NCBI GenBank assembly: GCA_031379405.1
Contig: JANNFC010000383.1
Coordinates: forward strand, 1 to 44,291
Origin: Betaproteobacteria bacterium
GTDB taxonomy: Bacteria; Pseudomonadota; Gammaproteobacteria; Burkholderiales; SHXO01
Direction of reading: 5' to 3'
DNA: 44,291 nucleotides
In this document: in pieces, positions 29,392-39,300 of the stretch
Layout: each line of letters begins with the position of its first letter
How positions within the stretch are numbered: the stretch's first letter is position 1
Position numbers and translations under genes: made by a program
The notes under the pieces: generated by a model
Told to the model about the DNA's origin: nothing
Database searches by the model: none
What the model saw: only the letters and a program-made list of their open reading frames with translations

Positions 29392-30381
29392 GGGGTCAGA
29401 TCTATACTTCATAGGTTGGCGACGATTTCCCTGAGCATTTCATCGGCCTCTTCGGACTCGACCTCGCTTTGAATCTGGGTAACGCGTCCGATGGAGATAC
29501 CCGCCATCTCCGCGGCTTCCCGCAGGCTCAGGTTGACACGACGCCGTAACAAGTAGACCACGTGCTTGAAAGCTGGCCCGCTCTCGCGCCGCAAAACGCC
29601 TGCGGGCGTGATCCCGTGGGCGGTTGCTACCGCTCGAATGGCCGCATCGGCGGTGACCCTTATTGGATTGAAATGCGCCTTCGGCACATCTTTGGCCGTC
29701 TTCCCTTGCAAGCGTTTCTGTATTCGGTCCCGAAACGCTTCGGAGCCAAGGTACATCTGCCCCTTCAGCGCCTTCCACGGGGAGGGGGTCTTGATTCCCT
29801 GCTGAACGAAGCGTTCGTAGGATTTTCGTCCTGCCACGCCTTCTCCGAAGAACTCGATCACTCTGCTGGCCGCCAGCCATTGGGGACACTCAATGCGGCC
29901 GAGTGTGGATAGGTAACTGCTCCAATGCCAGGTCTCGACGTGATCCACCATCCTTGCGCGAACCGGATTGAGCACCACGTAGCGGCACAATTCCTGGAGG
30001 TAGCTGTCCTTGTCCACTAGAATGGACTTGTAGCGTCCCTGGAGTACGTGGCCGACCCGGTTGTGCCGCCGGTTGAAGGCTTGGGTATAGACCCCATTCA
30101 GGCGGCGCATCCCTTGTACCAGATTGGGCTCCAGCGTCTCAAGTAGCAGGTGATAGTGATTGTCCATCAAACAGAAGGCGTAAAGCACCCAGCCTTGCTG
30201 AAGCACTTCCTTGCCGAGCAGATCGAGAAAGACGATACGGTCGCCGTCGCTTTCGAAAATGGGCTCTTGCCGGTCGCCGCGAGCGGTGATGTGGTAGCAC
30301 GCACCGTGAAATTCGAGTCGCAAAGGTCTGGACATGGCCGGAGGTTACCGCCTTTCACCTATCAAGTATAGATCTGACCCC
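29392..30381 (-). mobile_element. REP-associated tyrosine transposase (RAYT) gene with flanking inverted REP-like repeats ('REPtron'-like unit)
   Basis: The 24-bp sequences GGGGTCAGATCTATACTTCATAGG (29392-29415) and CCTATCAAGTATAGATCTGACCCC (30358-30381) are reverse complements of each other (23/24). They bracket the Y1/HUH transposase-like CDS. Confidence 0.8.
29409..30335 (-). CDS. IS200/IS605-like Y1 (HUH) transposase family protein, RAYT type, with C-terminal DnaA_C-like HTH
   Basis: The 308-aa protein starts MSRPLRLEFHGACYHITARG. It has the HUH motif DNHYHLLLE (H60-Y61-H62), GHVLQGRYKS (candidate catalytic Y102) and CRYVVLNPVRARMV..WHWSSY. The C-terminal ~60 aa (VYLLRRRVNLSLREAAEMAGISIGRVTQI) look like an HTH. 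Confidence 0.82.
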   Translation of the reverse strand: MSRPLRLEFHGACYHITARGDRQEPIFESDGDRIVFLDLLGKEVLQQGWVLYAFCLMDNHYHLLLETLEPNLVQGMRRLNGVYTQAFNRRHNRVGHVLQGRYKSILVDKDSYLQELCRYVVLNPVRARMVDHVETWHWSSYLSTLGRIECPQWLAASRVIEFFGEGVAGRKSYERFVQQGIKTPSPWKALKGQMYLGSEAFRDRIQKRLQGKTAKDVPKAHFNPIRVTADAAIRAVATAHGITPAGVLRRESGPAFKHVVYLLRRRVNLSLREAAEMAGISIGRVTQIQSEVESEEADEMLREIVANL

Positions 30382-30499: not shown

Positions 30500-30870
30500 G
30501 GGGGCGCCCTGGGTTCGACGTGGGTCGCGAAGCATGGCAGTGCATGTCAAGGTCCAGTCACCTTGTAAATCAGCTGGAAAACGATAGTTGCCAACGACGA
30601 TCGTTACGCTCTAGCCGCCTAACACCGGCTAGACTCCGCCCCAGTTTGCTCATGGGCTGGTCTGAACCCGCAAGGGAGATGAGCGCGGAGTCATATACAT
30701 GGGATCGTGAAGTGCGGGGCTACTTCGCACGGAGCTAAATCCAAGGTAGCTCGCCTTCTCACAGCAAGCCGGTCAGCGGTGCGCGGGTTAAATTAAAGGA
30801 CCAGGCTAAACATGTAGTGCTGCCTGTGTAGGGCTTACGGACGCGGGTTCGATTCCCGCCGCCTCCACCA
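30500..30870 (+). ncRNA. ssrA: tmRNA (SsrA)
   Basis: The 5' end GGGGGCG pairs with the 3' end CGCCTCC-A-CCA, giving a G3:U wobble as in tRNA-Ala. The 3' T-arm is GGACGCGGGTTCGATTCCCGCCGCCTCCACCA. The internal tag frame is GCC AAC GAC GAT CGT TAC GCT CTA GCC GCC TAA. Confidence 0.92.
30590..30622 (+). other. tmRNA tag-peptide reading frame (ANDDRYALAA*)
   Basis: This is a direct translation from resume codon GCC at 30590 to TAA at 30620-30622. The YALAA C-terminus is the canonical ClpXP/SspB degron. Confidence 0.85.
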
Positions 30871-30874
30871 GTTG

Positions 30875-30908
30875 AAGCCGCCACCTTTACGAGTGGCGGC
30901 TTTTTTTT
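30875..30908 (+). terminator. Rho-independent terminator of ssrA
   Basis: The stem AAGCCGCCAC (30875-30884) / GTGGCGGCTT (30893-30902) runs into a T8 tract (30901-30908). Confidence 0.8.
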
Positions 30909-30968
30909 GTATGCGTTTAAAGCATACTGACAAATCGGGTATCCCTGCCCCACGCGACAAATGCGGCA

Positions 30969-31139
30969 TACATAGCTCGCTCTCCCCGCAGCATGCAGCG
31001 GCGATGCACTTAGATATCGGCCTTGGGCGCGAAGCTGGTGCGTGAGCTGCACGGATTCCGCAAAGATCTCCTGCCGCTTGCTCTCGCTGATTTCGTCGAA
31101 GGTCGCTTCATCGTGGTGAACCAGCAACGTGTAATTCAT
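30969..31139 (-). pseudogene. 3'-truncated YCII-related (DGPF-type) domain gene fragment
   Basis: The first ~57 aa (MNYTLLVHHDEATFDEISESKRQEIFAESVQLTHQLRAQGRYLSASPLHAAGRAS) fit the N-terminal half of YCII-family proteins. After that the ORF only continues by reading antisense through the ssrA terminator and the tmRNA 3' end, and the DGPF half is absent. Confidence 0.5.
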
Positions 31140-31180
31140 TTCGATACCCTCGCGTCGAGGACGAATCTCCAGTGCCCGGC

Positions 31181-31708
31181 TTACTTTTCGGCGAGTACCT
31201 TGAGGCTGGCAAGACCTTCCTCATACTTACCGCCGACCATCTTTTCCATGCTGAAGAACAGTGTCATCAGCTTCGAGATGTATGAGCTCGGGCCGTACAT
31301 GGCTTGTGTAACCGTTGTGGAGTCGTCGTGCCCCACTAGCGTGAATTCCACTGTGTTGTGTGCCTCAAATGGTTTCATGAAATCGAGTTTGAGCACGACT
31401 TTGGAAGTCGGCGTCGACTCCGTAATTTGCATGCGCCCCTGACCAACGTCCTTGTTGCCGTTCCATTCATACACCGCCCCGTTACCGCTCGTGGTTCCGC
31501 CGTAGGTGCGTTTTAGAGCGGGGTCGATCTTTTCCCAGGGTGACCACGCTTCCCACTTTCGGAAGTCGTTGATGAACGGGAAAATGATCGCCGGTGGCGC
31601 TTTGATGGTGATCGATCGCTCGATGCGAAATGAGTCGGGTTTAGTCGCGGCGTAAATGAGCACGGCACCAATTCCCACGACGACTACGATCGCGATTATC
31701 TGAATCAT
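31181..31708 (-). CDS. SRPBCC-family protein (polyketide-cyclase/START-like fold) with N-terminal membrane anchor
   Basis: The 175-aa protein has an N-terminal TM helix (IIAIVVVVGIGAVLIYAA). It continues PDSFRIERSITIKAPPAIIFPFINDFRKWEAWSPWEKIDPALKRTY...GRMQITES...KLDFMKPFEAHNTVEF, which matches a widespread SRPBCC subfamily from memory. Confidence 0.75.
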   Translation of the reverse strand: MIQIIAIVVVVGIGAVLIYAATKPDSFRIERSITIKAPPAIIFPFINDFRKWEAWSPWEKIDPALKRTYGGTTSGNGAVYEWNGNKDVGQGRMQITESTPTSKVVLKLDFMKPFEAHNTVEFTLVGHDDSTTVTQAMYGPSSYISKLMTLFFSMEKMVGGKYEEGLASLKVLAEK

Positions 31709-31747
31709 TCATCCCTCCAGTACTGTGATGATGTGGCGCAGCAGCGG

Positions 31748-32215
31748 TCAGCCGCCTATGTTCTGTATAGCCTGCAGCATCTCTTCCGAGCTCACATCTC
31801 GAATATGCGTGGCAACCGACCAGTGATGCCCAAACGGGTCTTCGAGTTTGCAATAGCGATCACCCCAGAACATGTCATCGAGAGGCATCGTAATCTTCGC
31901 GCCGGCACTGACCGCGAGGGCGACAAATGCATCGACATCTTCGACGTAGAGATGGACGGTGACCGGCGATCCTTTAAGTGATTTCGGGCCCAGCGTGCCC
32001 CAGTCGAGAAATTCGTCAGCCAGCATGACTGCCGAACCACCGATCCGGATCATGGCATGCATGAGTTTGCCCTGCGGGCCAGGCAGTCGCGCCACTTCCG
32101 TGGCGTTGAACGCTTTCTTGTAGAACTCAATGGCGGCGGCGGCGCCGGCGCAAACCAGATGGGGTGTTACCGAGTGCATTCCGTCTGGAATGGGCTTTAC
32201 TTGTGACTTGGTCAT
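31748..32215 (-). CDS. VOC-family (glyoxalase/bleomycin-resistance, PhnB-like) protein
   Basis: HSVTPHLVCAGAAAAIEFYKKAFNA....MHAMIRIGGSAVMLADEF.....VTVHLYVEDVDAFV...MFWGDRYCKLEDPFGHHWSVAT is the PhnB-like pattern. I chose the start at ATG 32215, 8 nt after an AGGAG; the ORF track begins at GTG 32239. Confidence 0.78.
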   Translation of the reverse strand: MTKSQVKPIPDGMHSVTPHLVCAGAAAAIEFYKKAFNATEVARLPGPQGKLMHAMIRIGGSAVMLADEFLDWGTLGPKSLKGSPVTVHLYVEDVDAFVALAVSAGAKITMPLDDMFWGDRYCKLEDPFGHHWSVATHIRDVSSEEMLQAIQNIGG

Positions 32216-32354
32216 CGTCATTACTCCTAGTGGTTGCACGATACGACCTGGTATTTCTGCCGGCCATCGACCGGTCGGAGCCAGGTGTTACGTACTTAAC
32301 AGTCGAACAAGACGCCACAGAATCGACACATCCAACGGTTTTTTGCAAGCCGTC

Positions 32355-32930
32355 CTATTCGGTGGCGATCGCTTCGACCTGAATGCGAAGCGTCACGTCC
32401 ATCCTGAAGCCGTAGGGTTTGCCCGCGTCAAGGCCAAACTCATCGCGATTGAACGTGCCGAGCGCATCGGCACCGCACAATTCCCGCTTCAGCATCGGAT
32501 GAACAATGCACTTGAGCGAGTTGATCGTCAAGTTGACTGGCTTGGTCACGCCGTGCAGTGTGAGCTCGCCGATGATCCGCGACGGTGACCCGTTCGACAT
32601 TCCGTCGAATTTTCCCTTGTACGTGGTCTGTGGGTACTGCGCGATGTCGAAGAACTCTGAACTCGTTGCCCAACTGTTCAACTTGTCGTGACCGAAATCG
32701 ATGCTGGCCAGCTCCAGCGCGACATCCACGGTTCCCTGCCCAGTCGCCTTATCCAACGTCACTTTACCCGCGGACTTGTTGAGTTTGCCGCGCCACATGG
32801 ACACGCCCATATGATCTGCTTCAAAGCTGGGAAAAGTATGCTCCGGATCGATGACGTAGTTGACTGGTGCCGCGACGGTGGTGCCGCTCAAGAGTACCGC
32901 GAAGATTGCAAGTGCGAAATTGAATTTCAT
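32355..32930 (-). CDS. YceI-family periplasmic (polyisoprenoid-binding) protein
   Basis: The 191-aa protein has a signal peptide (MKFNFALAIFAVLLSGTTVAAP). YVIDPEHTFPSFEADHMGVSMWRGKLNK..G.V and GELTLHGVTKPVNL are typical YceI motifs. Confidence 0.85.
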   Translation of the reverse strand: MKFNFALAIFAVLLSGTTVAAPVNYVIDPEHTFPSFEADHMGVSMWRGKLNKSAGKVTLDKATGQGTVDVALELASIDFGHDKLNSWATSSEFFDIAQYPQTTYKGKFDGMSNGSPSRIIGELTLHGVTKPVNLTINSLKCIVHPMLKRELCGADALGTFNRDEFGLDAGKPYGFRMDVTLRIQVEAIATE

Positions 32931-33002
32931 CTGAAGTTCCCTCTTGGTTCTTTCAAAGGCGATGCGACGCGGACGATTGCTGTGTGTTCAGTGTTCTGCC
33001 TG

Positions 33003-33170
33003 TCACACGAACAGATTCGAAATCTCGATCACCGGCCGTGGATTGGTACCGAGAACCTGGCCATCGATCTTGATACCATGCGCCAACTGCGTGGACTCCA
33101 CGTAACACGGTTGGTGCTCGGTCTCGCTGAGCACAGTTTCGTCCAAGTAGATAAGCAGCATATGTTTCAT
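33003..33170 (-). pseudogene. Possible second YCII-like N-terminal fragment (55 codons)
   Basis: This is my own translation and is below the ORF-track cutoff. AAGGA-N6-ATG is followed by MKHMLLIYLDETVLSETEHQPCYVESTQLAHGIKIDGQVLGTNPRPVIEISNLFV*. The first ~35 aa resemble the YCII-family N-terminus (MKYxxLIYxDE...C). The length is about half a normal domain. Confidence 0.35.
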
Positions 33171-33226
33171 AGGTGTCCTTCCATGTGACAGTCGACTGGC
33201 GAGTACGAAGTCCCATCGTATTCCGC

Positions 33227-34751
33227 TTACTTGCGCATGGCACGATCAGGGCCGAGATCTGGTATCGCTGCAGCCGCGGCATGACCATCCGCTCGTCGCA
33301 GCATGACTGCAGCCAAAATTAACGCGCCAATCATGGCTGCGGCGGCGATTGCGGCGGTGAGTTGCATTCCTTGGATAAATACGCCACGCGCCACCTCAAG
33401 CAGCGCTGCACCAACGGGCCCGGGCAATTGCGCGGCCGTCACAGTGGCGGCACTCAGCGTGCCGCGCGCTGCCTCCATCATTTCAGGGGCACGCCATCGG
33501 GTGCGACGCCGGACATTCCGACACGGTAAATGGCGGTGCCGATACTGCCGAAAATCGCGATGCCCAGGGCTCCGCCAAATTCCGAACTGGTCTCCGAGAT
33601 TGCAGATGCGGCCCCGGCCCGCTCGGGTGGCGCAGCCCCGATGACTAAATCGGTGGCCAGTGTAAATACCGGTGCGAGCCCAAGCGATAAAATGATGGTT
33701 CCGCTCAAGATCACACCAAGACCCGAGGCGGAACCCACCTGGGTGAGCAGCGCGAAGCCCACAGCCGTTGCTGCCACGCCGGTAGCCACTATAACGGGCG
33801 GTCGACGCCTGCGCACTAAGGCCGGAGTGAGCATCGAACCGACGGCGAACGCCAATGACCAGGGCACCATCCACAATCCAGCCACCAAGGGGGAGAGCCC
33901 GAGCACCAGTTGCAAGTACTGGGCGATAAAGATGTAGAACCCGAACATCACGAAGCAAACCAACATAAAAGTAGCTAACGCGGCGCTAAAGTTCGGCATT
34001 CGAAGCAACCGGAGGTCAATCAGCGGATCGATCAGGTGCGATTGCCTGCGCACGAAGGCGACTCCGAATGCAACGCCGATCAGAATGCTTGCGGCGGGCG
34101 CCCACGCCAAACCATCTTCGGCAATGCGCTTGAGTCCGTAGATCACGGCGAGCACCGCGAGCAACGACAGTGCCGCGCTGAACAAGTCCAAGGGTCCCGC
34201 GTTGGAATCGCGGTACTCCGGCAACAACATGGGACCCAGCACCAGCAAAAGCACCATCACGGGCACATTGATCAAAAAAACCGAGCTCCACCAAAAATAT
34301 TGGAGTAACAGCCCGCCGATCAACGGTCCGATCGCCCCGCCCACCGAGTAGCTGGAAATCCAGATGCCAATGGCGATGATGCGTTCGCCGGGGTCGTGGA
34401 ACATGCTGCGTATCAATGACAAAGTAGACGGTGCCAGTGTTGCCCCGGCGATGCCAAGCAGCGCGCGCGTAGCGATCAGCATGACCGCGTTGGTCGAGAA
34501 CGCTGCCATTACTGACGCAATGCCGAATGTCGCCGCGCCAAGCAACAACAGCTTTCGCCGTCCGATTCGATCGCCCAGTGTACCCATGGTGATGAGCATG
34601 CCAGCCACCATGAAGCCATAGATATCGACGATCCAAAGTAGTTGCGACGCGCTGGGCTTCAGATCCGCCGAAAGCGCCGGCACCGCGAGGTTCAGCACGG
34701 TCAGGTCCACTCGCGGCGGCTCGCCTTGGCGCCTGCCGGAGGGACAGTCAT
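33227..34751 (-). pseudogene. DHA2-type (14-TMS-like) MFS transporter, disrupted
   Basis: The 410-aa ORF (33478-34710) is clearly MFS (LDLTVLNLAVPALS, GTLGDRIGRRK) but lacks TM1. A separate-frame ATG at 34751 encodes MTVPPAGAKASRREWT*, a plausible original N-terminus. The last TM segments (PEMMEAARGTL...AAMIGALILAAVMLRR) lie in another frame, in the 3' part of ORF 33227-33958. The frame switch sits at the G4/C4 run at 33486-33489. Confidence 0.75.
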
Positions 34752-34911
34752 GCCGTTATCTTCCGTTCCGAACACAAGTACTTCACCGCTCTCACCCCCG
34801 ATTTATCTCGCAAAGTTCCTCACATCCTATAGTCGATCGTCCTCAGTCGAAATCGACATCAGACCTAAGTTAATCTTTCTCGATATCGTTGGGAACCAAT
34901 ATCTGCGTGGC

Positions 34912-35472
34912 TCATGGCGAATTTCGGAATACAAGTGTTGCCGAAATATCGACCTCGTTGTCAACGCGACCCTGGCCGTATGTCATACCCCATTTAGTGC
35001 GATCGATCGTAAGCTTGGCGCTTACCGTTATCCCTGTGTCGGTAGGGGCGATTTTGCAGGGTATGAACATGTCCACAACTTGATCGAGCATCGTTAGCTT
35101 CCCCCTAACGATTGCCGCGCCGTCATTGCCGATCCCGATGCTTGTCGCTTCGAATTGAATCTTGGGATAGCTCTTGACGTTAAAGAAATCGCGATTCTTT
35201 AGATGACCGGTCAGCCCGCCGTCATCGGACCAAAGACTTGTCGCATCGATATCGATCTTGAGATTACTCTTCGAAAAATTTCCCCACTCGATGTTTCCTT
35301 CTACCGAGAATGTCTTAAATCCGCCCTTGTGCGATCCGCCTGCTTTGCTGCCAATGAATTCGATTTTAGATTTTTCCTTTACGAGCACCGGGCTACCAGC
35401 TGCCATTGCGTAAAGCCATAAGCCAAGAAAGCCGGCTACTGCAAAAACTGAATTTCGAATGAAGAATTTCAA
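34912..35472 (-). CDS. YceI-like family protein (second, divergent copy)
   Basis: I take the start at TTG 35472, which is preceded by AAGGAG. It has an N-terminal hydrophobic signal or anchor (FIRNSVFAVAGFLGLWLYAMA). Motifs are SKIEFIGSK...GGFKTF, DATSLWSDDGGLTGHLKNRDFFNVKSYPKIQFE, VRGKLTM and IDRTKWGM. The local sequence is visibly more AT-rich than its surroundings. Confidence 0.7.
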   Translation of the reverse strand: MKFFIRNSVFAVAGFLGLWLYAMAAGSPVLVKEKSKIEFIGSKAGGSHKGGFKTFSVEGNIEWGNFSKSNLKIDIDATSLWSDDGGLTGHLKNRDFFNVKSYPKIQFEATSIGIGNDGAAIVRGKLTMLDQVVDMFIPCKIAPTDTGITVSAKLTIDRTKWGMTYGQGRVDNEVDISATLVFRNSP

Positions 35473-35616
35473 ACTTTTCTCCTTAAATTGAACGCGCGAC
35501 GCGCTTTTGCTTCGGATCTTAAGTCGATTTTCGTTGCACCAATCCCGAAAGCGGACTCTCGGTTTAAGTATCGCGCCCACTGGCTTTGCTGCATGCGCCC
35601 ACCATCCTATTGCATT

Positions 35617-35711
35617 GGGGTCAGGTCTATACTTGATAGTAATCTATCAAGTATAGACCTGACCCCTACTATTTTATTACTATCAAGTATAGACCTGACC
35701 CCTACTATTTT
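35617..35711. repeat. REP/REPIN-like cluster of the same family as the RAYT-flanking repeats
   Basis: GGGGTCAGGTCTATACTTGATAG (35617-35639) and its exact reverse complement CTATCAAGTATAGACCTGACCCC (35644-35666) are separated by TAAT, which forms a 23-bp perfect hairpin. A 32-bp unit CTATCAAGTATAGACCTGACCCCTACTATTTT is repeated directly at 35644 and 35680. The core differs from the RAYT-flanking copies by one base (GGTCT versus GATCT). Confidence 0.9.
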
Positions 35712-35721
35712 GAAAGGGCAC

Positions 35722-37311
35722 TTATCCTCGCAACTCGCGCACAGTCAAGAAAGCACTCCAAGTTGCCGACACGACGCCGAGCACGAGTGTGACAAGGAAC
35801 ACGGCATTGGCGCTCGAGCGGTAGATGTCCAGCATGGAGAGCCGCGCATCGCGAGAGAATTCCCCGGCGCGCAACACTACTTTCCTCGCCTTACCGTCCA
35901 GGCGCACTTGCAGTCCCGCTCCTTGTGGATCCAAATTGAGTTGTGTGATGGCGAACCTGGACAATTCCGTCAAGCCGATGAGGTCGCTCTTGGCGATGAC
36001 TATCGGCGCAATGGCGGGATGTTCAGGATAGGAGAGCGACCCGTCCACGATAAGTGTCGACTCCCACTTATCCTCCACCGACATATCGAGCAAGCTCACG
36101 TCCTTGATGGCAGTGCCGCCTTTGGGGAGCAACGCGAGCACCGCATCGCCGACGGTGCCGATCTTCAAAGTCAATCCGTTGGGCGCGCTCTCGATCTTTA
36201 TCTCCGGAGAGGAATCGCGCATCTGCGCCTCGTACACTGGATTGAGCCCGACCGCACCCAACTCTTTCGCCGCAGCGTGCTCAGTGAGAATTCGAATCGG
36301 AGCACTTACGATGGCCGCAGGCGAGAGCGACTGACCTTCCACTTTGACCAGCAGGCCGCGGCGCTTTCCGCGGCGCTCCAAGGTCACTACGCTATCAGGG
36401 TCCAACAGAAGCAAATCGAGCGTGCCGACAGATTTGGCGTCCTCCAATATCCCTGCTATCCGCACGGCCGGCTGCAGCGATTCGTCCGTCCCGGTGAAAG
36501 TCAGCTGTCCAGGCGCGCGCAACTCTCGCCACAATGCGGGCTTGCTGTGTTCCGGGGCGGCATCCAGTTTTTCCGCATCCACCACCCGCAAGCTCTTCGG
36601 TGACAGCGACACCGAGCGAAACTTCTCGATACCCAACTCGGAGAATCCCAACGTGTCCAGGATCGGCGCGCGATTCGCTCCACCCATGGTGAACTTAACT
36701 TTCTGTACGGTCAGGTCCAGTTGCACGTGGGTAGGCATCCGTACCTTCATCATCGCCACCGCGCCAAGGCCCATCACCACGGCCGGAAGCGCCAGTGTGC
36801 CGATGCGAAAGGCGATGCTGCGCCGCCAACGGTCGATGACCCAGTTGTGCCGCACGCTAAGCAAGGCCGGATGATCGCCTTGCAGTTCCAACGTACCGCC
36901 TTGACCACCGAACGCACGGCGCAGGCTCGTCACCAGTTGATCGAAACCCAAGTGCGAGTCCCCTGCTTTCCATTGCTTGAAGTCCGCCGTCTGAATGCGC
37001 CGGTACCCGAAGGGCAAGCGCACGTCCTCGATCATGACGGGGAACAAGGCTTTTTTTGCCAAGCCTTCGGAGGTCTCGTCTCTCACCCACTTGGACTTGA
37101 CGGAACGGCTGGACCACAGCACCACCACCGCTCGAGCCTGCTCGAGCTGCTTCTCCAATTCTTCGTCGAAGGCTTCGCCGGTGGGGATCTTTCTATCCCA
37201 CCACACGGAGAATCCTTGTTGCGTCAGCGCGTCGGCCAGCGACTTGGCCGTGGGCCGATCGTCGCTGGCGTAGCTGATGAAGATGTCCGTCACGCCGTTA
37301 AGGTGCGGCAA
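35722..37311 (-). CDS. TIR-domain protein with two widely spaced TM helices and an unrecognised central domain
   Basis: The 529-aa protein has residues ~8-135 resembling a bacterial TIR_2 domain (DIFISYASDDRPTAKSLADALTQQGFSVWWDRKIPTGEAF....ARAVVVLWSSRSVKSKWVRDE, candidate catalytic E79). A basic patch RWRRS precedes hydrophobic helix ~166-189 (IAFRIGTLALPAVVMGLGAVAMMK). Roughly 310 aa with no motif I recognise follow. A second hydrophobic helix spans ~503-524 (AVFLVTLVLGVVSATWSAFLTV), 5 residues from the C-terminus. Confidence 0.8.
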   Translation of the reverse strand: MPHLNGVTDIFISYASDDRPTAKSLADALTQQGFSVWWDRKIPTGEAFDEELEKQLEQARAVVVLWSSRSVKSKWVRDETSEGLAKKALFPVMIEDVRLPFGYRRIQTADFKQWKAGDSHLGFDQLVTSLRRAFGGQGGTLELQGDHPALLSVRHNWVIDRWRRSIAFRIGTLALPAVVMGLGAVAMMKVRMPTHVQLDLTVQKVKFTMGGANRAPILDTLGFSELGIEKFRSVSLSPKSLRVVDAEKLDAAPEHSKPALWRELRAPGQLTFTGTDESLQPAVRIAGILEDAKSVGTLDLLLLDPDSVVTLERRGKRRGLLVKVEGQSLSPAAIVSAPIRILTEHAAAKELGAVGLNPVYEAQMRDSSPEIKIESAPNGLTLKIGTVGDAVLALLPKGGTAIKDVSLLDMSVEDKWESTLIVDGSLSYPEHPAIAPIVIAKSDLIGLTELSRFAITQLNLDPQGAGLQVRLDGKARKVVLRAGEFSRDARLSMLDIYRSSANAVFLVTLVLGVVSATWSAFLTVRELRG

Positions 37312-38047
37312 TGATCGGTTGGTGATAGAAACTCACGGTTTGCGAGATCGCCTCGTTGGTATCCCGGAAGTATCCTTTCAATACGACGCGATAAGCGCCT
37401 TCCGGTGCCGGAGCTTCCGATAGATCCCATTTCACCGTGAACGGCCGACCACCCGGTTGTTGCTTGAAGGTTTGCGTCACAAGCGGCGTATCGCCGCCCT
37501 CCTTGAAAATCATCGCTGTTACTTTGCCGTCCTCACGCAAACGGAAAGTGAAGAGATACCCCTGCGCCCTGGCGGGAAGCTTGGATTGGTAGAACACCAC
37601 CGGTGCTACCTTCTCCAGCACACTGGGGCCGAATTTGCCCAAACGTGCGATGACACCCAGTTCCGTGGGCCTGAAATCTTTAAGCTGACTCAGCACGTCC
37701 TTGGTGGGCCATTCGAAGACATTGTCGTAACCCACTTTCCACGGCGCCCGTGGCTCCACCTTGTCGAGCCAGTAATAGTGTTTGTATTCCAGTTCGCGCA
37801 CGAACAGGAAGACCTCGGCGCGCTCCTTGAGAAAGAACTTCAGCCCGAGGCGCTCACCCAGCTTGGTCCAATCCTCCTTGTGATCCACCCGCGCGGACAG
37901 CAACTCTACGTCATAACCCGAGACGGGTTTCGGTTTGATGCCCTCGAAGCGATTGGACCGGCGCTGGTACTGCAACTCGTCCTGCGCCCAGGCCAATGCG
38001 AATACCAAAGCCAGACAGAAAGCCAACGCATGCGCTATTTTTTTCAT
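37298..38047 (-). CDS. Secreted hypothetical protein, co-transcribed with the TIR gene
   Basis: I take the start at ATG 38047 (MKKIAHALAFCLALVFALAWA|QDE, an AxA signal-peptidase I site). The ORF-track start at 38101 would add 18 non-signal residues. The protein is 249 aa with no family recognised. Its stop codon lies 14 nt inside the TIR CDS (overlap 37298-37311), which implies an operon or translational coupling. Confidence 0.7.
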   Translation of the reverse strand: MKKIAHALAFCLALVFALAWAQDELQYQRRSNRFEGIKPKPVSGYDVELLSARVDHKEDWTKLGERLGLKFFLKERAEVFLFVRELEYKHYYWLDKVEPRAPWKVGYDNVFEWPTKDVLSQLKDFRPTELGVIARLGKFGPSVLEKVAPVVFYQSKLPARAQGYLFTFRLREDGKVTAMIFKEGGDTPLVTQTFKQQPGGRPFTVKWDLSEAPAPEGAYRVVLKGYFRDTNEAISQTVSFYHQPIIAAP

Positions 38048-38109
38048 CGAACAACCCCAAGCGGTAGAATCGCCATCATAACCTGAACGAATCCCACGCA
38101 AACGAAAAC

Positions 38110-39300
38110 ATGTCCGGTCCTCTCGAAGGGGTGAAGATCCTCGATCTCACCTCCGTTGTCATGGGTCCATTCGCGACCCAAATCCTCGCCGAACTCGGCG
38201 CTGAAGTGCTCAAGATCGAATCCCACGACGGCGACAACATGCGCGACGTGGGGCCCATGCGCAGCCCGCACATGGGCCACCTGTTCATGAACTTGAATCG
38301 CGGCAAGCGCGCCATGGTGCTCGATCTTAAACAACCCGAAGGGCGCGAAGTCATCATGCGCCTGCTGCCCAAGATGGATGTGCTGATCTACAACGTACGC
38401 CCCTCCGCCATGGGACGCCTGGGACTTTCCTACGACGATGTGCGCGTGGTCAATCCGAAGATCATCTACGTCGGCACCTACGGTTACTCTCAGCGCGGTC
38501 CCAAGGCAGCTAAAGCGGCCTATGACGATCTCATCCAAGGTGCTTCCGGCTTGCCGGCAATCTCCATGGAAGAAGGTGGCGAGCCGCGTTACGCGCCGGT
38601 CAATCTAGCGGATCGCGTGACGGGATTGCATGCGGTCTATGCAGTCACCTCCGCGCTGTATTACCGCGAGCGCACCGGAAAAGGCCAAGCGGTCGAGGTA
38701 CCCATGTTCGAGAGTATTACCCACTTCGTGTTGGGCGATCACATCGCAGGCATGGGCTACGAACCGCCAATCGGTGGCACGGGTTATCTGCGCCTGCGCC
38801 ATCGCAAACCGTACGCCACCAAAGATGGCTACCTTTGCATTCTGGTGTACAACAACAAGCAGTGGAAAAGTTTTCTGGAGGCCATCGGGCAACTGGATAT
38901 CTTGCAGGACCCGCGCTTCGCCACCCATGCCAGCCGCGCCAATCATATCGACGAGGTATACGCCTATCTCACGCAAGTGTTCAAAACGAAGACCGGCGCC
39001 CAGTGGCTTCCCATTTTGGAAAAGGCCGATATTCCAGTCTCGCCTATGAACACGACCACCGACGTGATTAGCGATCCGCACCATGTCGCGACCGGTTTCT
39101 TCTCCATACAGGAACATCCGACGGAGGGAAAGATTCGCACTATGCGCACGCCGACGGATTGGTCGGAGTCTCCGCCTTCTTCAACGGGATTCGTTCCACG
39201 CCTGGGCGAACATTCCGCGGAGGTGTTGCGCGAGTTGGGATATGGCGAAGACGCCATTGCCGACTTGGCGCGGCGTCGCGTCACCCATGTGGTGGGCTGA
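38110..39300 (+). CDS. CaiB/BaiF family (class III) CoA-transferase
   Basis: The 396-aa protein begins PLEGVKILDLTSVVMGPFATQILAELGAEVLKIES and contains the catalytic-Asp region AYDDLIQGASG. Confidence 0.87.
   Translation: MSGPLEGVKILDLTSVVMGPFATQILAELGAEVLKIESHDGDNMRDVGPMRSPHMGHLFMNLNRGKRAMVLDLKQPEGREVIMRLLPKMDVLIYNVRPSAMGRLGLSYDDVRVVNPKIIYVGTYGYSQRGPKAAKAAYDDLIQGASGLPAISMEEGGEPRYAPVNLADRVTGLHAVYAVTSALYYRERTGKGQAVEVPMFESITHFVLGDHIAGMGYEPPIGGTGYLRLRHRKPYATKDGYLCILVYNNKQWKSFLEAIGQLDILQDPRFATHASRANHIDEVYAYLTQVFKTKTGAQWLPILEKADIPVSPMNTTTDVISDPHHVATGFFSIQEHPTEGKIRTMRTPTDWSESPPSSTGFVPRLGEHSAEVLRELGYGEDAIADLARRRVTHVVG

Follow-up and report, generated by a model that had tools for sequence, protein, structure and literature searches.

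A TIR-MID membrane protein and its secreted partner as the core of a candidate protease-associated envelope module in bacteria

To our knowledge, the bacterial TIR systems described so far detect infection within the cytoplasm. What role, then, might a bacterial TIR domain have in a protein with two transmembrane (TM) segments that is encoded in tandem with a secreted protein? This question is raised by two neighboring minus-strand genes in contig JANNFC010000383.1 of a Betaproteobacteria bacterium (Burkholderiales; GenBank assembly GCA_031379405.1), a stretch of 44,291 nucleotides that is referred to here as the window. The upstream gene encodes a protein with a signal peptide (the partner), and the downstream gene a protein made up of a TIR domain, a TM segment, an ectodomain that we call MID and a second TM segment (TIR-MID). 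An original prediction, made from the window alone, had described the two genes as a candidate TIR signaling or defense unit. We report here that partner and MID represent two unnamed protein families which are inherited together in several phyla, in most cases beside genes for secreted trypsin-like proteases, and that these proteases have been lost from the window. We consider it about as probable as not that the pair forms the constant core of a conserved and undescribed envelope module, truncated here, in which a cytoplasmic effector would be gated by proteolysis in the periplasm.

A TIR domain, an all-beta ectodomain and a secreted partner

Listing of the open reading frames (ORFs) of the window placed two minus-strand ORFs at the predicted coordinates. 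Both are real genes, as judged by full-length homologues with E-values down to 1e-231 for TIR-MID and 1e-117 for the partner. The two coding sequences had been predicted to overlap by 14 nucleotides. Their tight coupling was upheld, but the overlap is an artifact of choosing the longest ORF: homologues of TIR-MID all begin two residues ahead of the “DIF” strand in alignments and the database gene call comprises 523 residues, so that the likely start is the GTG at 37293, 4 nucleotides past the TAA of the partner gene (37298-37300). Residue numbers given below for parts of TIR-MID refer to the 529-residue form, unless 523-residue numbering is stated.

The N-terminal part of TIR-MID matched Pfam TIR_2 (PF13676) over residues 10-126 (E=9e-27; score 94.4 bits, cutoff 28 bits), with the match spanning profile positions 1-121 of 122. 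In an alignment with AbTIR, BtTir and RUN1, Glu79 fell on the Glu of the W..E motif, i.e., “WTNYE” in AbTIR and “WCLDE” in RUN1. This Glu is catalytic in the TIR domains of all three proteins, and a Glu of this type was kept in every one of the TIR-MID homologues recovered (48/48). An AlphaFold2 model of TIR-MID, built with 21 homologues, had a predicted local distance difference test score (pLDDT) of 83. By Foldseek, it resembled the TIR domains of TRR-2 (target-normalized TM-score 0.83-0.85), AbTir (0.73) and SARM1 (about 0.6-0.7), with that of MyD88 also among the matches, whose scores ranged from about 0.6 to 0.85. The original assignment of a TIR_2 domain with Glu79 at the catalytic position was thus borne out; with a catalytic-type Glu and a TIR fold, the domain is of the NADase type and is predicted from its sequence to be active as such.

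Hydropathy analysis placed TM segments at residues 166-190 and 496-524. In the AlphaFold2 model, which agreed with this, the TIR fold is joined by a disordered linker to a long helix (160-183, in 523-residue numbering), followed by an all-beta domain (188-482) and a terminal helix (495-522). The two TM segments therefore flank some 310 residues, as had been predicted, and the first of them (TM1) is preceded by the disordered linker and a basic patch, RWRRS. The intervening all-beta domain of ~310 residues, MID, was modeled with pLDDT values of about 85-93. It had no match in Pfam, NCBIfam or PADLOC, nor, by profile search, among PDB sequences; fold searches with full-length TIR-MID against PDB and BFVD were filled by TIR matches and bear on that domain only. 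About 20 proteins were homologous to the window TIR-MID over its full length, other matches covering the TIR domain only, and MID aligned end to end with TIR-less proteins of 370 residues. MID is placed on the periplasmic side because, across the family, all cytoplasm-type domains lie outside the TM pair and because a Nitrospirales subfamily lacks the second TM segment (TM2), as described below. The predicted topology is accordingly that of the original prediction, i.e., cytoplasmic TIR, TM, periplasmic MID, TM, with MID sharing its compartment with the partner and the proteases.

The partner carries a standard Sec signal peptide of 21 residues (MKKIAHALAFCLALVFALAWA, followed by QDE, with cleavage between AWA and QDE) and has no lipobox Cys in it, confirming the prediction of a 249-residue secreted protein. 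Its family comprises 287 homologues from several phyla with identities of 45-73%, in none of which a Pfam domain was found; the window protein itself had no Pfam, NCBIfam or PADLOC match and its profile found nothing among PDB sequences. The AlphaFold2 model of the partner (pLDDT 95.2) is all-beta, the mature part forming a tandem beta-sandwich, for which Foldseek returned only generic Ig/FnIII-like matches with TM-scores of at most 0.28 (RbmA, transglutaminase C-terminal barrels, GbpA). In alignments, the mature N-terminus (LQYQxRxNRxEGIKPKPVSGYD) and a C-terminal FYHQP motif were near-invariant across phyla, which is unusual in a non-enzymatic periplasmic beta-sandwich protein.

Co-inheritance, proteases and variable cytoplasmic domains

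The loci compared were contigs with homologues of the pair, together with 80 loci that a single scan of genomes representing species had returned; about 85 loci showed the module. The partner and MID genes were adjacent, on the same strand and in the same order, in more than 70 loci, an arrangement which the window pair fits, its partner gene being upstream. Across 64 loci, pairwise identities of partner and MID were correlated (r=0.89, Mantel 0/999). This correlation shows co-inheritance, not contact, and it upholds the predicted co-conservation of the two genes.

In the recurrent gene order, the partner gene came first and the gene of the MID protein, a homologue of residues ~170-527 of the window TIR-MID, came second, with one to four Trypsin_2 genes with a Sec signal behind them; only in Holophagales and Thermoanaerobaculia did the trypsin genes lie upstream instead of downstream. 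An adjacent trypsin gene was present in about 57 of the 61 MID loci with enough flanking sequence (about 93%), as counted after manual correction of three ORF-overlap miscalls (L075, L082, L084; L numbers denote loci). The original concept of a two-gene unit is therefore not supported, the trypsins being the usual partners that had seemed to be missing. Most of the trypsin ORFs had kept the His motif and GxSGxP (89/115) and had an N-terminal hydrophobic signal (100/115). Their C-terminal domains varied, including FGE-sulfatase (C-lectin), MORN, TPR, PEGA, PD40/Tricorn and Ig-like/ASH domains, and look like ligand sensors. The module was found in Burkholderiales and other Pseudomonadota, in many Nitrospirales, and in Acidobacteriota, Geobacteraceae, Phycisphaerae and Acidimicrobiia. 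With few exceptions these were metagenome-assembled genomes, and Methylolobus aquaticus (L005) was the sole named species with a complete module.

An exhaustive HMMER search with MID only yielded 276 cluster representatives at a threshold of E<=1e-3, of which 154 also passed E<=1e-10; such a search of representatives was needed to size the family, as the same query in a word-indexed database returned seven proteins only. MID proteins were ~350-400 residues long, which leaves no room for a cytoplasmic domain, or ~500-560 residues, with a few at 725-790. Among the ~150 representatives listed, about 60 were of the ~350-400-residue kind, without a cytoplasmic domain, while the 58 of at least 400 residues included 40 with TIR_2, four with CHAT, two with SEFIR and one with an ATPase domain. 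The TIR, SEFIR and ATPase domains were N-terminal to TM1 and the CHAT domains C-terminal to TM2. In the Holophagales variant, the N-terminus is a bona fide bSEFIR (E=1.7e-40). The TIR domain, which had been taken as the defining part, is thus an optional cytoplasmic add-on of MID and one of several outputs. In a Nitrospirales TIR-MID subfamily TM2 is missing and the C-terminus of the ectodomain is predicted to be free in the periplasm.

Individual variants illustrate this range. A MID protein with an N-terminal bSEFIR is encoded at L080 (7711-9345), and a MID-CHAT protein, with CHAT after TM2, at L087 (7728-9536, minus strand), where the gene is convergent with that of the partner, not downstream of it. 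TM2-less proteins of 503 residues were seen at L047, L049, L056-L058, L060, L061, L065 and L069, and also as P0023, P0027 and P0039. An apparent 916-residue TIR-MID-trypsin “fusion” at L078 (6809-10487) was rejected as an assembly frameshift, the TM2 region being out of frame and the partner split, and was not used. At L075, L082, L083 and L085, MID seemed to be extended far at its N-terminus, but this was likewise dismissed as over-extension of the ORFs into the partner gene.

A receptor-like layout, as originally proposed, is indeed present in TIR-MID, but it is not unique to it. The nearest TIR relatives had a predicted TM segment in 83 of 101 cases, mostly a single one that lies between the TIR domain and an ectodomain, ~150-290 residues into the protein. 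As such TM segments and ectodomains are common in relatives, the layout is a general property of this TIR clade. The ectodomains included FGE-sulfatase, TPR, PDZ, Trypsin_2 and others. At L091 (1162-2265), for example, a single protein has the order TIR-TM-Trypsin_2, and at L092 (1593-9336) three TIR_2 genes stand in a row, two of them encoding TIR-TM-FGE-sulfatase paralogues. Periplasmic trypsin, PDZ and FGE-sulfatase domains hence recur as outside partners of the clade.

Within the window, no trypsin ORF or remnant was found in the 44 kb, either by HMM search or by tblastn with five cognate trypsins even at E=10. Three syntenic relatives (L088, L089 and L090, with TIR proteins 50-53% identical to that of the window) have trypsin genes directly after TIR-MID. 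Ahead of the partner gene, L088 and L089 carry a CoA_transf_3 gene in divergent orientation, as does the window, whose CoA-transferase shares 78% identity with the L088 protein. Past the TIR-MID stop codon, by comparison, the window has a cluster of repetitive extragenic palindromic (REP) units, then a YceI gene, with GC content falling to 0.47. The REP cluster marks the end of synteny with the protease-bearing relatives. Given the trypsin genes of these closest syntenic relatives and the REP-marked break, the absence of the proteases from the window is a derived loss. Only one other TIR-MID locus, L057, was without an adjacent trypsin gene, and fragmented modules occurred at L024, L051 and L064.

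The repeated element is a 23-nucleotide palindrome, CTATCAAGTATAGA(C/T)CTGACCCC, of which three copies stand just behind TIR-MID (35617-35711) and a fourth (30359-30381) adjoins a Y1_Tnp gene of the type associated with REP elements (RAYT-like), near ssrA. As predicted, therefore, the pair lies at a REP-marked border, the units bracketing ssrA and an accessory patch of ~4.7 kb; the cluster could also serve as a terminator hairpin. The pair is flanked by genes for a YceI protein and a CoA-transferase, and no ThsA, cyclase, Argonaute, STAND or reverse transcriptase gene adjoins it in the window, in line with the prediction that the usual partners of TIR systems would be missing. Both genes are full length without frameshifts, and they have kept all family-invariant residues, the signal peptide, the TM segments and the catalytic-type Glu. 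The features of the locus are listed in Table 1.

Table 1. Features of the partner/TIR-MID locus in the window (residues of TIR-MID numbered as in the 529-residue form)
Feature	Position	Strand	Remarks
Partner gene	37298..38047	-	249 residues from ATG at 38047; the ORF itself spans 37298-38101
Partner signal peptide, residues 1-21	37985-38047	-	ORF translation
TIR-MID (TIR-2TM) gene	35722..37293	-	523 residues from GTG 37293; start from homologue alignment and database gene call
Longest-ORF form of TIR-MID gene	35722-37311	-	529 residues from TTG 37311
TIR_2 domain, residues 8-131	36919..37290	-	Predicted cytoplasmic; Pfam, alignment, Foldseek
Glu79 codon (GAG), catalytic type	37075-37077	-	Alignment to AbTIR, BtTir and RUN1
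TM1, residues 166-189	36745..36816	-	Hydropathy and AlphaFold2 helix
MID ectodomain, residues 190-500	35812..36744	-	All-beta in AlphaFold2 model; predicted periplasmic; unnamed family
TM2, residues 501-524	35740..35811	-	Hydropathy and AlphaFold2 helix; followed by short, predicted cytoplasmic tail RELRG
Three REP-like 23-nucleotide palindromic units	35617..35711	.	Directly 3' of TIR-MID stop codon
Divergent intergenic region, 62 bp	38048..38109	.	Between partner and CoA-transferase genes; presumed promoter region
CoA-transferase gene (CoA_transf_3)	38110-39300	+	Synteny anchor
Y1_Tnp/IS200-like (RAYT-like) gene	29409-30335	-	308 residues; abuts palindromic unit at 30359-30381, near ssrA

Further observations concern the surroundings of the module. 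The window region 30500-35580 holds a tmRNA gene (tag ANDDRYALAA) followed by genes for SRPBCC, glyoxalase, YceI, MFS and second YceI proteins, the last in low-GC DNA (0.47); the N-terminus of the MFS ORF (33478-34710) seems to be truncated. In Nitrospirales, the module stands directly behind an ABC ATPase/HlyD/OEP tripartite exporter on the same strand (L056, 3540-6747; L039, 1918-5400; also L047, L057, L058, L061 and L069), with a stand-alone FGE-sulfatase gene also present at L039. This adjacency could reflect export beyond the periplasm or simply a neighboring operon. At L006 (14865-17578), RepB_primase, PriCT_1/AAA_25 and AAA_23 genes follow the module at a distance of a few kb, suggesting that a mobile element may be close by. 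At L018, a second MID and trypsin pair is found ~5 kb off on the opposite strand.

A proposed proteolytic relay and its rivals

The reading that we favor, at roughly even probability, is that of a relay across the inner membrane. A cue in the periplasm or envelope would be bound by the sensor domain of a secreted protease, which would then act on a complex of the partner with the MID ectodomain, in parallel to DegS/RseA/RseB. We infer the contact between partner and MID, the proteolytic gating, the NADase activity and any immune role, whereas the gene families, their domain content, an architecture consistent with the topology, the co-inheritance and the loss of the proteases from the window are shown by the sequences. 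The altered ectodomain might cause the membrane-tethered TIR domains to cluster and to cleave NAD+, with growth arrest or a signal as the outcome. More generally, the cytoplasmic effector would be activated by oligomerization; it would usually be a TIR_2 domain of the NADase type, in some proteins a bSEFIR or the caspase-like protease CHAT, and in many there would be none. The window pair would have been left orphaned, or dependent on a protease encoded elsewhere, after loss at the REP-marked rearrangement. In support of this relay, members of the TIR clade are elsewhere fused via a TM segment to Trypsin_2, PDZ, FGE-sulfatase or TPR ectodomains.

Several findings weigh against it. In their Pfam content, the flanking genes are mostly housekeeping or metabolic (110 flanking proteins from 36 loci), and only about five of the 110 proteins match PADLOC defense models, the matches being to bGSDM, IetA, PDC-S01, subtilase, TRIP13 and CARF. 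The locus is syntenic in related Burkholderiales, and the usual defense-island signature was not seen in these flanks, where defense genes were not consistently present. The partner, with a mean identity of 48% across phyla, is conserved to a degree that is unusually high for an immune component, and its gene stands alone in some Burkholderiales loci (L010, L011, L016, L001/L018). Moreover, as most MID proteins are without a cytoplasmic domain, the core function cannot require TIR.

For the window itself, two explanations compete with a truncated relay. The pair may be a non-functional relic that is decaying after loss of its protease genes. The missing trypsins, the REP units, RAYT-like gene and low-GC DNA at the break would all fit with this, as would the fragmented modules at three other loci; however, both ORFs are intact in length and frame, and the invariant residues, signal peptide, TM segments and catalytic Glu have been retained, and we regard decay as rather unlikely. 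The same intactness, down to every family-invariant residue, would be expected of a self-contained receptor and co-receptor, in which partner and MID together sense a periplasmic ligand and switch the TIR domain without a protease, as in TLR4/MD-2. L057, where TIR-MID also lacks an adjacent trypsin gene, and the co-variation of partner and MID are in keeping with such a pair. Nevertheless, trypsin genes adjoin about 93% of the assessable loci and are present in the closest syntenic relatives of the window, and we regard this explanation as decidedly unlikely.

Other explanations concern the module as a whole. It could be a housekeeping system for quality control or stress signaling in the envelope, its proteases processing or degrading proteins of the periplasm on a MID-partner membrane scaffold and its TIR domain, in copies that have one, emitting a regulatory nucleotide signal. 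The housekeeping neighborhoods and stable syntenic position, the strong conservation of the partner, the many MID proteins without an effector domain and an architecture analogous to DegS/RseA/RseB all speak for it. It is difficult to reconcile, however, with the swapping of TIR_2, bSEFIR and CHAT domains, a combination characteristic of systems for conflict and cell suicide, with protease paralogues that carry diversified FGE-sulfatase, TPR, MORN and PEGA domains in the pattern of immune sensors, or with the patchy taxonomic distribution, and we consider it unlikely. Very improbable, in our view, is an ecotin-like role of the partner as an inhibitor or chaperone in the periplasm, with MID as a membrane anchor that restrains potentially self-damaging secreted trypsin effectors, which could be used against competitors or invaders. 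This would account for a highly conserved partner that is always encoded beside proteases whose accessory domains vary, and it would agree with the genomes in which the partner occurs alone and with the Nitrospirales loci directly behind an exporter. Yet the partner matched neither ecotin nor another inhibitor family in sequence or structure, and the TIR, SEFIR and CHAT fusions on the cytoplasmic side of MID would be left unexplained.

A stronger form of the proteolytic relay, possible though on the doubtful side, is that the module acts as a bacterial transmembrane immune-receptor pathway: the diversified proteases would recognize foreign material present in the periplasm and cut the complex of partner and MID ectodomain, whereupon the TIR, bSEFIR or CHAT domains would cluster as death effectors. 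If so, this would be the first prokaryotic TIR domain to receive an extracytoplasmic signal across a membrane, and a protease-cascade counterpart of the Toll pathway. Should the relay itself be real, extracytoplasmic sensing and proteolytic gating would be added to the modes by which prokaryotic TIR, SEFIR and CHAT effectors are activated, and whether bacterial TIR domains can be the outputs of receptors would become a directly testable question. The locus has in any case revealed a clade with an N-terminal TIR, TM and ectodomain, a module that spans multiple phyla, and two sizeable unannotated protein families. Its value lies more in this family than in the window copy, which is probably orphaned.

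Comparison with known systems

As the original prediction had supposed, searches of Pfam, NCBIfam and PADLOC did not assign the pair to a named system. We rejected Thoeris, CBASS/Pycsar, SPARTA, retron-TIR and SLATT as identities for it, since the matches were confined to the TIR domain and below cutoff, and the required partner genes were absent. Thus, ThsB_TIR scored 24.7 bits over half the domain and the NCBIfam model ThcB4 43 bits against a cutoff of 220, with no adjoining ThsA; CAP12-PCTIR_TIR of CBASS/Pycsar scored 13.9 bits against a cutoff of 24.7, with no cyclase in the flanks of the window. TM-scores to SPARTA chains were ~0.2-0.3, with no APAZ-like structural match and no Argonaute gene. 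A SLATT protein, which the TM spacing had already argued against, is likewise not indicated: there was no SLATT match in Pfam, a folded beta domain of 310 residues separates the TM segments, and one subfamily is without TM2.

The closest functional analogy is offered by DegS-RseA-RseB, the sigma-E envelope stress pathway, in which DegS cuts RseA once RseB has been displaced. Both comprise a trypsin-fold protease in the periplasm that bears a ligand-binding domain at its C-terminus, a protein of the inner membrane with a periplasmic domain and a cytoplasmic output domain, and a beta-rich secreted protein encoded alongside. The likeness is one of function only. Neither window protein had a Pfam or NCBIfam match to RseA, RseB or DegS at E<=1, and the module differs in having two TM segments rather than one, an output of TIR, SEFIR, CHAT or none in place of an anti-sigma domain, several proteases with non-PDZ sensor domains, and no RseP.

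In its inventory of domains, i.e., trypsin-like and CHAT peptidases, TIR, FGE-sulfatase (FGS) and TPR, and in its multiplied paralogues with varied sensor domains, the module recalls the nucleoside triphosphatase (NTPase)-centered conflict systems of multicellular bacteria (Kaur et al. 2020, PMC7159879; 2021, PMC8195603). The latter are cytoplasmic, are built on MoxR-vWA, STAND or GTPase cores and use EAD adaptors or Trypco (PMC7159879, PMC8195603). The present module, by contrast, is predicted to be periplasmic and Sec-dependent, is built on two unnamed families and is without such cores, EAD or Trypco. Within the literature searched, it is not described in these two papers (PMC7159879, PMC8195603), in recent reviews or in a survey of TIR proteins.

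With Thoeris (types I-IV), CBASS/Pycsar, SPARTA and bSEFIR proteins, the module shares a TIR-superfamily domain of the NADase type with a conserved Glu; in type IV Thoeris, the TIR protein is paired with a caspase-like protease (PMC13434031). The module differs from Thoeris, CBASS and SPARTA in that its sensing is predicted to be extracytoplasmic and that ThsA, cyclase, Argonaute and APAZ are missing. A survey of TIR defense in E. coli noted that membrane and ectodomain features of the Toll-like receptor kind are apparently absent from bacterial TIR systems (PMC11350192). Kiwa, Zorya, SNIPE and periplasmic HXS resemble the module in being inner-membrane complexes with periplasmic parts, and are thought to detect envelope events and to respond in the cytoplasm or periplasm (PMC13434031, PMC13128918). 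Their proteins are unrelated to those described here, however, and none of them uses TIR or secreted proteases.

Finally, Toll-like and IL-1 receptors work with secreted co-receptors such as MD-2, much as TIR-MID is encoded with a secreted partner. Compared with these receptors, the polarity of the module is reversed, the TIR domain being N-terminal, the ectodomains are unrelated and proteases are integral to the system. The TIR domain of the module has, in addition, kept its catalytic Glu, which points to an enzyme rather than a scaffold.

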